This document shows, one piece after another, positions 3,852-39,410 of a stretch of 39,464 bases of DNA. The notes under the pieces were generated by a model, which made no database searches, was not told the origin of the DNA, and saw only the letters and a list, made by a program, of their open reading frames with translations. The stretch lies in contig CAYSNO010000001.1 of the NCBI GenBank assembly GCA_964432455.1, positions 4,883-44,346 on the forward strand, in the 5' to 3' direction. Both the position numbers and the translations under genes were made by a program. Position 1 is the stretch's first letter. Every line of letters begins with the position of its first letter. This DNA comes from an uncultured Candidatus Saccharibacteria bacterium. Lineage in GTDB: Bacteria; Patescibacteriota; Minisyncoccia; Phycocordibacterales; UBA918.

Positions 3852-4778
3852 ATGCAAGAACCTACGAACACGTCTACGCCACAGCCAACATCGGCTGATT
3901 CTACAGAGACTACTTCTACTACTGAAACCATCGTTGCTACAACCGAAACTGTTTCTTCACCTGAAGCTACGCCAGTAACTGTTTCGACTGATTCGCCAGC
4001 GGTTGCTGATACACCTACACCAGAAGTGATTACCACCACGCCGCCGGTTGTGGCAGTTACAAGTGCTCGTCGTCAGGCCTTGAAGCAATACGGTATTGCC
4101 TTTTTGATTGTGGCTATTATGGGCGGTGCATTGTGGTACCTCCTTGAAAAGCAGGGACGAGTGCAGACGGGTGTCTTTGATAAAATCACCGCGCTCGTGC
4201 GACCAGAGCCTGCTGTTGTGAAAGTAAATGGTGAAAAGATTCCAAAGTCACTGTACGACAAAAACTACGAACAGCTATCTCTGCAAGCTGCTTCACAAGG
4301 AGCTGATGCAACTGATCCAACCACCGCTGAACAAATTAAAAAGCAGGCTATTGATGTCCTCGTGAATAGTGCACTCTTGAAGCAGGCTGCCCGTAAAGCT
4401 GGCGTAGTTGTCACAGATGATCAAATCACTGAACGCTATCAGGGTATTGTTGATGCACAGGGGGGTGAAGAAGCACTCGCTGCACGGATGGCAGAACTGA
4501 AAATCACCAAAGAAGGGCTCATGAAGGATATTGAAGAGGAGATCCTCATCCAGACGCACCTCGATAGTGCGATTGATATCAAGAGTATTGAAGTAACTAA
4601 AGAAGAAGTAGATGCCTTTTATAAGAGTGTGACCAGTAACCCTGATGTAAAAGTACCACCTCTTGAGGAAGTTCGTGAGCAAGTTGAACAAGAGATTCGC
4701 TATGGTAAGCAGCAGGAACTCATTAGTGACTACATTGATACCCTTAAGAAGGATGCTCAAGTAGAAGTGCTTATCTAA
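3852..4778 (+). CDS. Membrane-anchored SurA-N/PrsA-like chaperone-type protein
   Basis: Thr/Ser/Pro-rich N-terminus, one TM helix, then a SurA N-terminal-like helical region (VNGEKIPKSLYDKNYEQL...). No clear PPIase core seen. Confidence 0.55.
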   Translation: MQEPTNTSTPQPTSADSTETTSTTETIVATTETVSSPEATPVTVSTDSPAVADTPTPEVITTTPPVVAVTSARRQALKQYGIAFLIVAIMGGALWYLLEKQGRVQTGVFDKITALVRPEPAVVKVNGEKIPKSLYDKNYEQLSLQAASQGADATDPTTAEQIKKQAIDVLVNSALLKQAARKAGVVVTDDQITERYQGIVDAQGGEEALAARMAELKITKEGLMKDIEEEILIQTHLDSAIDIKSIEVTKEEVDAFYKSVTSNPDVKVPPLEEVREQVEQEIRYGKQQELISDYIDTLKKDAQVEVLI

Positions 4779-9305: not shown

Positions 9306-9640
9306 GGCACGATGGTCGCTGTCTTATTGAGACAGAGGAAAGTCCGAACACACCCAATCTTCACTGATTTGGAGACGCGTAGCGGGTAACACCCGTCCAT
9401 GGCAACATGAGAGGTGCGAGCAGAGACGCTCTGGTGCGAAAGTGTCAGAGATCCCCTCGGGGATAGCTCATAGTGAAAGCTATGAGGTGAAACGGCTAAA
9501 TCCTTATGTGTGTGCAAGGCCGTGTCCTCTAAGCGTTCGCGTTTAGAGGAAGAGCCGCAAGAGGTGACTGGTAACAGTTATCCCAGGTATATGACCATCC
9601 CGGGCCATTGGCTCGGACAGAATTCGGCTTATGTGCAAAA
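9306..9640 (+). ncRNA. rnpB: RNase P RNA, bacterial type A
   Basis: P4 strands GAGGAAAGTCCG (9335-9346) and ACAGAATTCGGCTTAT (9617-9632). P3 hairpin CTGTCT/AGACAG. GGTGAAACGGC and GGGTAACACCCG modules present. Ends are approximate. Confidence 0.9.
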
Positions 9641-20802: not shown

Positions 20803-21102
20803 ATGGACCCCATGCCAACCGATCAACACGAACTTATTATTAAACTCCTACGAGAGAATCAGGAGCTCGTGCGGCAGAACAATGAGCTTTTGATTCGCCA
20901 AGAACGACGTGAACGTCGCCGTTTCATCTTTAAGGTGATTTGGTACACGATACTTCTCGGTATCCCACTTCTCGCCTACTTCTATCTCTACAGTATGTTT
21001 GCGGGCATCACTGGTGCGGAAACGACTGGTATGCAGATCAATGGCATCAATGTCCCGCCTGGGGTAATTGAAGGTCTCATAGAGACCTATACGGGGCGGT
21101 AG
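20803..21102 (+). CDS. Hypothetical small membrane protein
   Basis: 99 aa with a charged helical N-terminus and one TM helix. TATAAT at 20789-20794 lies 8 nt upstream. Confidence 0.5.
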   Translation: MDPMPTDQHELIIKLLRENQELVRQNNELLIRQERRERRRFIFKVIWYTILLGIPLLAYFYLYSMFAGITGAETTGMQINGINVPPGVIEGLIETYTGR

Positions 21103-21120
21103 GCTCTAACGCCGTGGTTA

Positions 21121-21612
21121 CTGCTCATTTCGACCCAGGGCTCGACCCAGAATTGCGGCTATTTACTTCACTTCGCTTACCAGGTCAAAGGACGGGCTCG
21201 GTCACGAGTTACTAAGTCTTTTATTCACTATGTTCATAAAAGTCTAAGTACTCTCGACCCCGACTCGACTGTTTTGCTCCTATCGTCGCAAAACATGTCT
21301 GCGCCTTTCGAGCCCGCACGTGACTGATACTAATTAGTCGGGCCCGGTCACGCTCATGGATATTTTATTTCGTACCTCATAAAATATCTCATTCGCCCGA
21401 CCCGGACTGTTCCGGCCCTAAAAGGGACCCGGAACAGTCTTTCGAGCCAAGGCTCGTCCTGACGGTCACCAAGCTAGATTATTTCACTGCGTTCATAATC
21501 TAGCAGGTGCCGCGGGACACGCCTCACTTGTTTTGGCATTAGGAATAGACAAAACATCGTTCCGGCGTTCGAGCCCGCACGCAACTGAAATTAGTCAGTT
21601 GCTCCCCAAGCA
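21121..21612 (+). repeat. Array of 4 divergent ~90-140-nt structured units containing tRNA T-loop/acceptor-like fragments
   Basis: Recurrent order: hairpin, TTCGAGCC, hairpin, GGTCAC or CCCCAAGCA, then an A/T-clamped hairpin. No credible ORF. See findings. Confidence 0.7.
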
Positions 21613-21665
21613 CAGCATACACAAAAAGCGCCCAATGGCGCTTTTTGTGTATGCTGTGCTTGGGG
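21604..21665. repeat. 29-bp perfect inverted repeat (4-nt loop) overlapping the 3' end of tRNA-Phe; probable terminator
   Basis: CCCCAAGCACAGCATACACAAAAAGCGCC-caat-GGCGCTTTTTGTGTATGCTGTGCTTGGGG. The right arm overlaps the tRNA at 21657-21665. Confidence 0.85.
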
Positions 21666-21729
21666 GCGGGCTCGAACCGCCGACCCCTTCCTCTTCAGGG
21701 AAATGCTCTACCAACTGAGCTACCCAAGC
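21657..21729 (-). tRNA. tRNA-Phe (anticodon GAA), CCA not encoded
   Basis: GCTTGGGTAGCTCAGTTGGTAGAGCA..CTGAAGA..GGCGGTTCGAGCCCGCCCCCAAGCA. Clean cloverleaf. Confidence 0.95.
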
Positions 21730-21739
21730 AGTGAGGCAC

Positions 21740-21767
21740 ATTGTACCTGTTTATAGATATTTTTCAA
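21740..21767 (-). promoter_or_regulatory. Promoter of tRNA-Phe
   Basis: TTGAAA, 16 nt, TACAAT, with the -10 box ending 10 nt before the tRNA 5' end. Confidence 0.5.
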
Positions 21768-21787
21768 CCTCGATACTTGTATGGTAC

Positions 21788-21960
21788 TAGACAAACATAT
21801 TTCACCGGCGTATCATATAACCACTATGAAGCTGACCCACCACATCGCCACCTGGAGTAGTTTCTCCTCATCCTGTTCAACTAGTATCCGCACTGGAAGG
21901 TAGTTTTTGAGCATCTATTGAATGACATCGAAATCCGCCTTCCGAGGCGGATTTTCGTTT
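21788..21960 (+). promoter_or_regulatory. Candidate promoter, ~135-nt leader with a 25-codon Ser-rich mini-ORF (21826-21903), and intrinsic terminator (21931-21960)
   Basis: TAGACA, 17 nt, TATCAT. Mini-ORF MKLTHHIATWSSFSSSCSTSIRTGR. Hairpin AAATCCGCC/GGCGGATTT plus a T-tract, 60 nt before the 22021 ORF. Confidence 0.35.
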
Positions 21961-24289: not shown

Positions 24290-24614
24290 TGATCTAGTGT
24301 GTGGGCCACCCACACGACTAATCAATCGTTTGCTGGAGACTGAATTCGAGTCTACGTTTGAGTTGTGCCAGAGCACGGCCACGCAATTTCAATTGCTGTT
24401 CTCGCTTTCGAGCATCAGGCTCTGCTGCATATGCTTCATAGTACAGCAATACCAGTGGGCGCCGTGGTTTGGTGGATTGTACGTCTCCAGCGTTATGTTC
24501 TTTTAACCGTCGCTTCAAATCGTTGGTTGAACCTACATATAGTTCATTATCTTTGATACTTCTGAGTATGTAGAGATAGAACATAACGAACGATTGATCT
24601 AGTGTGTGGGCCAC
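24290..24614 (-). mobile_element. GIY-YIG gene cassette bounded by 20-bp direct repeats at the valS stop codon
   Basis: TGATCTAGTGTGTGGGCCAC occurs at 24290-24309 and 24595-24614. A 10-bp inverted repeat ATCAATCGTT/AACGATTGAT lies just inside each repeat. Confidence 0.6.
24318..24584 (-). CDS. GIY-YIG nuclease family protein (small, stand-alone)
   Basis: FYLYILRS..LYVGSTNDLKRRLKEHN..PLVLLYYE motifs. Start set at MFYLYIL. The longer ORF reads through the duplicated valS tail. Confidence 0.85.
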   Translation of the reverse strand: MFYLYILRSIKDNELYVGSTNDLKRRLKEHNAGDVQSTKPRRPLVLLYYEAYAAEPDARKREQQLKLRGRALAQLKRRLEFSLQQTID

Positions 24615-29982: not shown

Positions 29983-30057
29983 TGGTGCGCGATATAAGAA
30001 TTGAACTTATGGCCTCTTCGATGTCAACGAAGCGCTCTACCACTGAGCTAATCGCGC
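29983..30057 (-). tRNA. tRNA-Val (anticodon GAC), CCA encoded
   Basis: GCGCGATTAGCTCAGTGGTAGAGCG CTTCG-TTGACAT-CGAAG ... ATAAGTTCAATTCTTAT ATCGCGCACCA. Confidence 0.95.
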
Positions 30058-39199: not shown

Positions 39200-39225
39200 C
39201 AAAAAATTATACCATGATATTTTTG

Positions 39226-39246
39226 TGCACCTACGGGGAATCGAAC
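39226..39246 (-). repeat. Orphan direct copy of a tRNA T-loop/acceptor 3' end
   Basis: GTTCGATTCCCCGTAGGTGCA. 17 nt (39230-39246) are identical to tRNA-Glu 39415-39431. There is no matching 5' half. Confidence 0.7.
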
Positions 39247-39248
39247 AT

Positions 39249-39410
39249 TACATGTTCAGTACAGGTTGTCGCTATTTTTTATCGCTTCGCTCATAAAAGT
39301 AGCTGGCAACCTTTTCGATTCCCACGTAAACAGTCTCCCAGACTGTTTACTCGTAGGGTCACGCAACAAAAACGGCATCCACTAAAAGTGAATGCTCGTT
39401 TTTGTACACG
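39249..39410 (-). repeat. 160-bp structured mini-element between the tRNA-Glu 3' end and its direct partial copy
   Basis: Contains an inverted tRNA 3'-end copy split by a hairpin (39314-39363), the module shared with 13940-14000, and an A/T-clamped hairpin (39271-39303). Confidence 0.65.

Follow-up and report, generated by a model that had tools for sequence, protein, structure and literature searches.

A tract of DNA directly downstream of the tRNA-Phe gene in the genome of an uncultured Candidatus Saccharibacteria bacterium is probably an array of insertion modules, small elements that are both non-coding and non-autonomous and that settle at the 3′ ends of tRNA genes. The tract occupies positions 21103-21656 of a stretch of 39,464 nucleotides (contig CAYSNO010000001.1 of assembly GCA_964432455.1, positions 4,883 to 44,346), and this whole stretch is called the window below. 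We put the probability of this reading at roughly 0.6. It is quite likely that the modules are site-specific insertions at tRNA ends, and a folded hairpin serving as the attachment site is a tentative proposal for the mechanism, made by analogy with other systems. Non-autonomous site-specific insertion at tRNA genes is a known kind of event. The form seen here appears to be new, in that it combines a non-coding length of about 130-230 bp, a covarying Y-shaped body, a forked hairpin that mimics a tRNA end, and retargeting among at least four tRNAs. The original prediction, made from the nucleotide sequence alone, knew of no described family with this architecture, and our searches of Rfam and of the full-text literature likewise brought up no match.

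The structure of the tract exceeds chance. Compared with dinucleotide shuffles, it folds with a minimum free energy (MFE) z-score of −13.4 on the plus strand and −12.2 on the minus strand, and the module sequence pattern, which is expected 0.00 times, occurs once. No credible open reading frame (ORF) exists at 21103-21656, as had been noted earlier, and only spurious ORFs overlapping tRNA-Phe occur. A repeat scan recovered the proposed hairpins in their places (21270-21277/21288-21295, 21405-21415/21429-21439 and 21581-21588/21595-21602), as well as three inverted-repeat pairs that correspond to the A/T-clamped hairpins. The T-loop-like sequence TTCGAGCC is also present at 21307, 21441 and 21568, and each copy is complementary to the T-loop region of tRNA-Phe.

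The division of the tract into four units did not survive comparison with related loci (numbered with the prefix L), which gives three full modules and two decayed ones instead. The conserved unit is 115-135 nt long and is bounded by a closing stem, GGGCTCG...CGAGCCC. On the tRNA strand each module forms a three-way junction, or Y-shaped body, composed of this closing stem (P1) and two arms (P2 and P3). A further hairpin, H3, splits an inverted copy of the tRNA end, and a palindrome, P0, reaches into the tRNA gene. In the window, modules A, B and C are complete and the two decayed modules lie at about 21103-21189, with the following features along the array:

21102-21117, minus strand: degenerate tRNA-Phe T-arm-like fragment (GGCTCTAACGCCGTGG versus GGCTCGAACCGCCGACC) at the far end of the array, abutting the stop codon of a 99-aa gene
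21128-21147: collapsed palindrome junction with an inverted and a direct T-loop copy, TTTCGACCC-A-GGGCTCGACC (repeat scan)
21138-21189, minus strand: decayed module, reduced to a truncated P3-like hairpin whose homologue is the P3 arm in the distal tRNA-Phe module of L012 (GGGCTCGACCCAGAATCGCGG...)
21187-21322, minus strand: module A, complete (cmsearch 139.4 bits, E = 7e-37), with stems P1 at 21194-21200/21309-21315, P3 at 21200-21259 and P2 at about 21267-21298
21319-21338: H3 remnant of module A (GTGACTGATACTAATTAGTC), compared with the intact H3 GTGACTGATACTTATCAGTCAC in L021 and L022
21337-21451, minus strand: module B, of the B subtype with a short P2 linker (nhmmer E = 2.9e-18)
21440-21459: collapsed palindrome junction between B and C, TTTCGAGCC-AA-GGCTCGTCC (repeat scan)
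21448-21583, minus strand: module C, complete and closest to the tRNA (cmsearch 84.4 bits, E = 2.5e-21; outside the model seed)

The three complete modules belong to different subtypes, and each resembles modules of other genomes more than it resembles its neighbours. The nearest relatives of module A are in L021, L022, L027, L016 and L018, module B is 96% identical over 110 nt to the sole tRNA-Phe module of L011, and the relatives of module C are L014 and the tRNA-Arg module of L012. The palindrome expected after the H3 remnant of module A is deleted, and the inner junctions are the short palindromes CGAGCC-AA-GGCTCG (21443-21456) and CGACCC-A-GGGCTCG (21131-21145). A junction of the type found at 21128-21147 recurs in L011, L021, L022 and L026, and in the window its sequence can be read as what is left of an older module's forked hairpin. 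The final codons of the 99-aa gene, together with the 16 nt that follow them at the far end of the array (21091-21117, ACGGGGCGGTAGGCTCTAACGCCG), look similar to the 3′ half of tRNA-Phe in reverse complement (GGGGGCGGGCTCGAACCGCCG); this may be an old tRNA-end copy that overlaps the end of the gene, or a chance resemblance.

In the copies behind tRNA-Phe, P1 reads GCGGGCUCG/CGAGCCCGC. P2 corresponds to the first hairpin of the originally proposed units with a lower stem added, and P3 to the A/T-clamped hairpin extended to a GGUC/GACC base. The word GGTCAC had been placed correctly at 21200, 21346 and 21464, but it is the base of the P3 hairpin (GGTC/GACC) and not an acceptor-like end, and its resemblance to the 3′ end of tRNA-Glu, to which it had been linked, is coincidental. 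Selection on structure, by contrast, is well supported by strong covariation of the helices. RNAalifold applied to a plain MAFFT alignment of ten copies, which was not fitted to a covariance model and hence serves as an independent check, gave 34 pairs, 19 of them with compensatory changes. In the model-based alignment 90.6% of the cells are paired versus about 35% with slid partners, double changes occur in 38 of 42 pairs, and the observed values were reached by none of 500 shuffles. Covariation preserves the helices at tRNA-Phe, tRNA-Arg and tRNA-Val sites alike. In all 11 modules compared, the tRNA strand has the lower MFE, mostly owing to a G.U pair at the base of P3 that is conserved in 20 of 27 sequences; once this single pair is removed, G.U and A.C pairs number 27 versus 29. 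The structured strand may act as DNA or as RNA.

The modules are found only behind tRNA genes. A covariance model, R1, was built from nine copies and searched in the window and 27 related loci (218 kb), where it returned 24 matches with E < 1e-5. The search for further copies that had been suggested earlier, carried out with nhmmer and the covariance model, thus found them in relatives and behind several tRNAs. Every R1 match lies directly downstream of a tRNA gene and on the strand of that gene, and no module copy was found away from tRNA ends in the 218 kb searched with R1. The host is tRNA-Phe in most loci, tRNA-Arg(CCT) in L012, L016, L017, L018, L022 and L028, and tRNA-Val(GAC) in L063, L065 and L067. 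A second body type (...CAGTACAGGTTGTC...GGCAACC...), which escapes detection by R1, is present behind tRNA-Val (L063, L065), tRNA-Arg (L022) and the tRNA-Glu gene of the window. The latter copy was delimited by repeat scan and has these parts:

39225-39405, minus strand: second-type module behind a partial tRNA-Glu (tRNA from 39410)
39225-39246: direct copy of the tRNA-Glu 3′ end, 22 nt, 91%
39247-39313: body
39314-39323: inverted T copy, followed by AC
39326-39350: H3 hairpin, followed by T
39352-39363: inverted acceptor copy
39366-39405: terminator hairpin

The direct and inverted copies at the ends of the modules match whichever tRNA adjoins. At the tRNA-Phe site of the window, the relevant features are:

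21568-21612, plus strand: inverted copy of tRNA-Phe positions 54-73 (repeat scan, core scan)
21604-21632/21637-21665: P0, a perfect 29+4+29-nt palindrome (inverted-repeat scan)
21656-21729, minus strand: tRNA-Phe(GAA), intact, the landing site (ARAGORN; Rfam 67.6 bits)

The inverted copy is made up of TTCGAGCCCGC (21568-21578, tRNA positions 54-64), AC, a 22-nt H3 (21581-21602), T, and CCCCAAGCA (21604-21612, tRNA positions 65-73). H3 therefore splits the copy at the boundary between T-stem and acceptor, and the hairpin insertion that had been noticed in the inverted tRNA copy is located precisely between tRNA positions 64 and 65. The segment CCCCAAGCA, which had been described as acceptor-like, is indeed part of the perfect 29-nt inverted repeat that reaches into the tRNA-Phe 3′ end. 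The outer arms of P0 are the tRNA-Phe acceptor end and its inverted copy, which continues through the trailer and the terminator arm, and the centre of P0 is a two-way terminator-like hairpin (GCGCC CAAT GGCGC) with T runs. The counterparts of P0 in relatives are built from unrelated sequences, yet they are perfect, and the P0 stems show no bulges other than the H3 branch.

The inverted copy behind tRNA-Glu reads TTCGATTCCC..CGTAGGGTCAC and accompanies the 22-nt direct repeat listed above. The layout in which a T copy is followed by AC, H3, T and an acceptor copy is common to Phe, Glu, Arg (L022) and Val (L063) sites, and H3 varies in sequence while its shape is constant and its position fixed. 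In B-type modules the 20-nt inverted copy is uninterrupted, as in L011 (TTCGAGCCCGCCTCCAAGCA). On the far side of the module is a direct tRNA-end copy, which at Phe sites reads CGAGCCCGCCCCCAAG(CA) in L016, L017 and L027 and which measures 13 and 22 nt at Val and 18-22 nt at Arg. Only positions from about 47 to 73 of tRNA-Phe are ever copied, in both orientations. Of the 17 Phe sites that bear modules, 15 have the inverted copy, at a distance of 23-45 nt downstream of the tRNA. It is present in two truncated Phe sites as well (L015, L031) and missing from all three empty Phe sites. In L011 the inverted copy (4438-4457) reads CCTCCAAGCA and the genome’s own tRNA-Phe reads CCCCCAAGCA; the T variant in this copy is the real tRNA-Phe sequence of L019 (Kaiserbacteria; 4438-4457). 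This correspondence hints that the L011 module may have been shaped on the tRNA of another lineage.

Comparison of the same tRNA-Phe locus across relatives, which had been recommended earlier, showed that the presence of modules differs and that sites are either filled or empty. The empty tRNA-Phe sites of L023, L030 and L067 have only a plain terminator without the inverted copy, and the tRNA-Arg and tRNA-Val sites that are filled in relatives are empty in the window. There, tRNA-Val (29983-30057) has a CCA end and is followed by the terminator hairpin AAAAGCCCGAAGGCTTTT and then by a DHH gene. In L063 (18340-18780), the same terminator and 13 nt of the tRNA-Val end, including CCA, adjoin the DHH gene. 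From the DHH side, the order in L063 is this displaced end, a type-1 module, a 22-nt tRNA-end copy, a type-2 module and the working tRNA-Val, which has an altered tail without CCA. Replacement of the tail together with an outward shift of the old end is the pattern that an insertion inside the 3′ part of the tRNA would leave. With respect to CCA, this sequence is encoded at the empty site of the window and in the displaced copies of L063, and insertion behind tRNA-Val consequently changes whether CCA is encoded in the genome.

Differences are also seen at the level of strains. The window arrangement is reproduced at 99.8% in L070, whereas L069 (flanks 99.9%) has the body of module A directly behind the P0 and H3 of the window, with B and C missing, and L072 and L075 (99.9%) have a different tRNA-proximal module. 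Modules behind different tRNAs can be closely similar, with P3 of the L021 Phe and L065 Val modules matching at 93.5% over 77 nt and P2 of the L012 Arg module and module C of the window at 91% over 45 nt. All ten contigs that encode an identical 99-aa protein (L001-L010) stop inside the tract, at positions corresponding to 21121, 21293, 21404, 21407, 21419, 21477, 21483 and 21569, which suggests strain heterogeneity or assembly breaks induced by the repeats.

Relatives in which the tRNA-Phe block has the plus orientation carry variable small cargo genes, co-directional with the tRNA, between the modules and a conserved leader called S (L012 5232-5817, L014 4665-5114, L016 4714-5160, L017 2279-2980, L021 1570-2806, L024 817-1350 and L027 2334-4335). 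By eye, these encode NUDIX hydrolases, GrpB-like and CYTH-like proteins, a MazF/PemK-like toxin with its antitoxin and a NERD-like protein, the family names coming from sequence inspection and not from a profile search. The region behind tRNA-Phe is a small hot spot for gene gain. Modules without any cargo are found in the window, L011, L022, L026 and L063.

Among the relatives, the block consisting of promoter, tRNA-Phe and modules (window 21103-21785) occurs in either orientation between the 99-aa gene and S, and the modules are always downstream of tRNA-Phe whichever way the block lies. For example, a 347-bp block is about 95% identical and inverted between L021 (1178-1524) and L022 (4324-4670), with L021 carrying an additional 1490 bp of cargo. 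On a small tree made from a short alignment of S and the 3′ part of Hsp20, which calls for caution, the minus orientation appears in at least three places. A core-like TCGAG half site was considered as the inversion edge and rejected: the word stands before the promoter edge in only about 7 of 23 loci, and in the flank alignment of the window with L065 homology begins only from TAGACAAA onward. In Thermococcales, integrases of tRNA-targeting elements are known to bring about inversions between inverted tRNA-related sites (PMC5495485). By analogy, we speculate that the palindrome TCGA in the T-loop core could make the orientation of the site ambiguous.

If the modules are insertions at tRNA ends, one full insertion read on the tRNA strand would comprise the tRNA 3′ end, a trailer with a terminator hairpin, the inverted copy split by H3, the Y-shaped body and a direct copy of the tRNA end, the first three parts of which would form P0 as a long forked hairpin. 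New modules would enter beside the tRNA, so that older ones are pushed outward, the P0 palindromes of the older modules would collapse, and recombination between repeats would remove units. The inner junctions can be viewed as palindromes from which the centre has been deleted, as would be expected if only the newest module keeps P0. Insertion would presumably proceed by site-specific recombination at the repeated core, with a recombinase acting in trans from elsewhere in the genome. This recombinase is hypothetical, and the modules are considered non-autonomous because the window, the cargo and the annotated loci contain no candidate for such an enzyme.

The inverted orientation of one core might be explained in two ways. 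The attachment site could be a single strand folded into a hairpin in imitation of the tRNA gene end, similar to CTX attP(+) or integron attC, or the modules could act like Xer pdif modules, which are bounded by inverted sites. The order of core, terminator loop, inverted core, body and core would be the outcome if a circular element with a core and an inverted-copy hairpin site recombined. The fixed position of H3, its constant shape, and the perfect P0 stems built from unrelated sequences fit a structure-defined site that is recognised together with the end of the tRNA gene. A bolder and doubtful extension is that these are minimal mobile elements of a new class, ~200 nt of single-stranded DNA or RNA, in which a forked hairpin passes for a tRNA gene end and so recruits a host enzyme for insertion behind that tRNA. 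Copying of the mimic from its target would allow the family to switch among tRNAs (Phe, Arg, Val and Glu). Owing to the palindrome TCGA in the T-loop core, DNA might also be flipped in this reaction, which would explain both orientations of the tRNA-Phe block.

Several points weigh against insertion modules. The window (Pfam, all ORFs), the cargo (by eye) and the annotated 20-kb loci yielded no gene for a recombinase, a transposase or an HUH enzyme, and no free circular or single-stranded form was seen. The model-based covariation comes from an alignment fitted to the model, and many of the sequences are related. The modules L018-Arg and L067-Val copy only the last 5-6 nt of the tRNA and the trailer. 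The extent of the copied core therefore varies among subfamilies (Phe, Glu and some Arg and Val modules copy the whole segment between the T-loop and the 3′ end), which is odd for a single recombinase site. The terminator within P0 of A- and C-type Phe modules resembles the native terminator of empty sites (L023, L067), and part of P0 could thus be native and not borne by the element. In addition, the P1-P2-P3 body is intact in inner modules that lack P0, which suggests a function beyond insertion, for example as RNA.

This last point is shared by an alternative that we consider unlikely, although it can coexist with mobility, in which the modules are structured non-coding RNA (ncRNA) genes on the tRNA strand that are expressed by read-through from the strong tRNA promoter or from their own start, and the arrays arise by local duplication. 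The RNA could possibly be cut by tRNA-processing enzymes, because its terminal helix repeats the acceptor and T-stem sequence of the neighbouring tRNA. Such genes would account for strong covariation in a defined three-way junction, the conserved G.U at the P3 base, the lower MFE of the tRNA strand in all 11 modules, the retention of P1-P3 by inner modules after loss of P0, and the invariant orientation relative to the tRNA. However, G.U is not in excess of A.C apart from that one site, and every proximal module is separated from the tRNA by a terminator hairpin with a T run. A conserved promoter was not detected; TATAAT-like words inside P3 have poor −35 spacing and occur on both strands. Decay is frequent in the acceptor portion of the distal copy, which leaves no conserved acceptor-like stem, and the filled and empty sites among close relatives and the three subtypes in the window are unlike local duplication. 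No Rfam family matches the modules: at the gathering threshold, Rfam 15 reports only tRNAs in the window and 8 related loci, and at a permissive E ≤ 10 the tract yields only weak miRNA-like hairpin matches to the palindrome, with the tRNA-Glu module also remaining without a family. Direct repeats of the tRNA 3′ end that start from the T-loop are a classic integrase signature, and together with the variable cargo beyond the modules in plus-orientation relatives they would suit a tract that is debris of ordinary tRNA-integrating islands, made of the attL/attR cores and arms that stayed behind when integrase and cargo were lost, and of the tRNA terminator, with incidental hairpins. We regard this origin as improbable, since such remnants would neither maintain 42 base pairs by compensatory change at Phe, Arg and Val sites nor retain the layout of T copy, AC, H3, T and acceptor copy behind four tRNAs. 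Furthermore, modules occur without cargo in the window and the four loci named above, no integrase remnant was seen (Pfam on window ORFs, cargo by eye), and an inverted core copy is foreign to classical attP.

The idea of a repeated, small, non-autonomous element at tRNA 3′ ends was already part of the original prediction and agrees with the copies in relatives, the other host tRNAs and the filled and empty sites, but the labels MITE, PATE and REP-like that came with it do not apply. Classical miniature transposons (MITE, REPIN or IS200/IS605-derived PATE) are small, non-coding, repeated and hairpin-rich, vary in copy number, and have terminal inverted sequences that can form a closing stem, as the modules do, and a transposase would recognise their terminal inverted repeats or hairpins. 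The terminal repeats here are copies of the target that differ between Phe, Arg, Val and Glu, leaving no constant ends for a transposase, and the long flanking direct repeat is 13-22 nt of tRNA and not a short target-site duplication of fixed length. Nor are there copies away from tRNA ends in the 218 kb, and neither the window nor the loci showed a transposase, RAYT or TnpA, which makes this class very improbable as a whole. REP and REPIN elements are defined by a 20-40-nt palindrome with a GTAG-type head, dispersed intergenic locations and a RAYT gene, whereas the modules are 115-135-nt three-way junctions behind tRNAs only, with no RAYT seen in the sequence examined. A PATE carries subterminal hairpins, lacks terminal repeats of either orientation and is paired with a TnpA (HUH) partner, whereas direct and inverted repeats are present here and no TnpA (HUH) was found in the window or loci. 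Recurring fragments of the tRNA-Phe 3′ half might also recall a decayed protein gene or tRNA gene cluster, the outcome that the original prediction had set against itself, but this is scarcely credible. There is no ORF, the copies never include more of the tRNA than its 3′ 20-30 nt, occur in either orientation and take up constant positions within a repeated module, and the other 100 nt of each module are unrelated to tRNA and gain no tRNA score by ARAGORN or Rfam. Neither ARAGORN nor Rfam RF00005 calls a tRNA inside 21103-21655 on either strand, the helices covary, and among 28 loci no relative has an intact extra tRNA or ORF at the position of the tract.

Some further candidates were rejected. 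Carriage by viruses was suggested by 31 pattern matches in IMG/VR, none of which was confirmed by the module profile, and these are attributed to chance. A hammerhead ribozyme would account for the CGAAA and GUC words, but on inspection by eye the CUGANGA box reads CUGGUGA or CUCGUGA, and Rfam agrees with its exclusion. A retron is not indicated, with no reverse transcriptase next to any module. Snap-back copying of a tRNA precursor fits the perfect palindrome but is incompatible with insertion of H3 at a fixed position.

The favoured insertion modules share features with several known systems. The attC sites of integrons are defined by hairpin structure and not by sequence and have a variable terminal structure, non-coding cassettes exist, and the arrays grow at one anchor with the newest unit nearest to it. 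A structure-defined hairpin site and growth of the array at an anchor are the points of likeness. In contrast to integrons, the arrays described here have a tRNA gene at their head and copy a core of 13-22 nt from its sequence, no integrase was found in Pfam scans or annotated loci, and the intI-attI-Pc arrangement is absent. The pdif modules of Acinetobacter are gene-carrying segments bounded by inverted Xer sites, which are 28-bp XerC/XerD sites on plasmids, and they shuffle between locations. With them the tRNA-end modules have in common that core sites alternate in orientation, that modules shuffle, and that inversions are expected; they differ in that their sites are tRNA-end copies on a chromosome and that they are non-coding.

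Integration of CTX phage uses a forked hairpin of two opposite att sites about 90 nt apart and the host XerCD recombinase (PMC3089051). As in CTX and other integrative mobile elements exploiting Xer (IMEX), two opposite target-like copies in the modules can pair into a forked hairpin, the element encodes no recombinase, and insertion beside a fixed site regenerates a usable site, so that tandem arrays form. The target differs, being tRNA 3′ ends and not dif, and modules of 130-230 bp of non-coding DNA stand against whole phage genomes. Genomic islands at tRNA genes, cis-mobilizable elements (CIMEs) and tycheposons likewise insert in the 3′ part of a tRNA, have direct repeats at their boundaries, accumulate in tandem and bring cargo nearby. 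These are kilobases long and either encode a tyrosine integrase or derive from elements that do, and they lack an inverted core copy, a forked hairpin and a Y-shaped body, whereas the inserts described here are 130-230 bp long with no ORF and no integrase inside. Tycheposon arrays carry partial tRNA repeats (bioRxiv 10.1101/2020.12.28.424599). Finally, the ends of a full-length module can pair as an acceptor-stem helix plus a T-stem-strand stem, which recalls tRNA-like RNAs such as the tmRNA domain, viral tRNA-like structures and mascRNA. Unlike these, the modules have no mimic of a T-arm or D-arm, their acceptor part is often decayed, and the Rfam models for tRNA, tmRNA and mascRNA do not score them.

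The genomes of Patescibacteria are tiny and streamlined, and few mobile elements are known there. The modules, if real, would be among the smallest site-specific insertion elements known, and they point to a trans-acting recombinase or other enzyme in the clade. The 3′ ends of tRNA genes would be landing pads that also gather small cargo genes. A structured module with a target mimic that changes with the tRNA would represent a natural form of retargetable site-specific insertion. The modules would also explain assembly breaks behind tRNA genes and could serve as a marker for strain-level variation.

The hosts of the modules are Patescibacteria (Candidate Phyla Radiation) of a Paceibacteria/Parcubacteria-like kind. 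The 99-aa membrane protein, whose gene immediately precedes the tract, has homologues that are annotated as proteins from metagenome-assembled genomes (MAGs) of Parcubacteria, Paceibacteria and Pacebacteria, and the related loci come from MAGs of Paceibacteria, Parcubacteria, Kaiserbacteria, ‘Saccharibacteria’ and unclassified Patescibacteria. Gene order around the tract is kept in at least 20 related loci and runs from tRNA-Arg(CCT) through an MFS transporter (in some genomes), the 99-aa gene, the tract, tRNA-Phe(GAA), the S leader and a small gene to Hsp20 and PrsW, the last two on the minus strand. The neighbouring features in the window are:

20803-21102, plus strand: 99-aa membrane protein gene, directly upstream of the tract
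21740-21767, minus strand: tRNA-Phe promoter, TTGAAA-16-TACAAT, conserved in all relatives and forming one edge of the block found in both orientations
21826-21959: conserved leader S, upstream of a 101-aa gene

The S leader contains a small ORF (21826-21903, MKLTHHIATWSSFSSS...) followed by a terminator hairpin, AAATCCGCC...GGCGGATTT, and the segment ATCCGCAC can pair alternatively with the terminator arm. This arrangement looks like a peptide-dependent attenuator, although S has no match in Rfam. Elsewhere in the window, a bacterial class A RNase P RNA lies at 9307-9640 on the plus strand. It was missed by the default Rfam scan because its score of 93.6 bits is just below the gathering score of 100, and the orthologue in L063 scores 101.8 bits. 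A free-standing GIY-YIG nuclease gene of 98 aa is located at 24318-24614 on the minus strand, with a 16-nt overlap with the start of the valyl-tRNA synthetase gene. Its product also matches T5orf172 at the Pfam cutoff of that family, and the gene may be the remnant of a homing-type nuclease.

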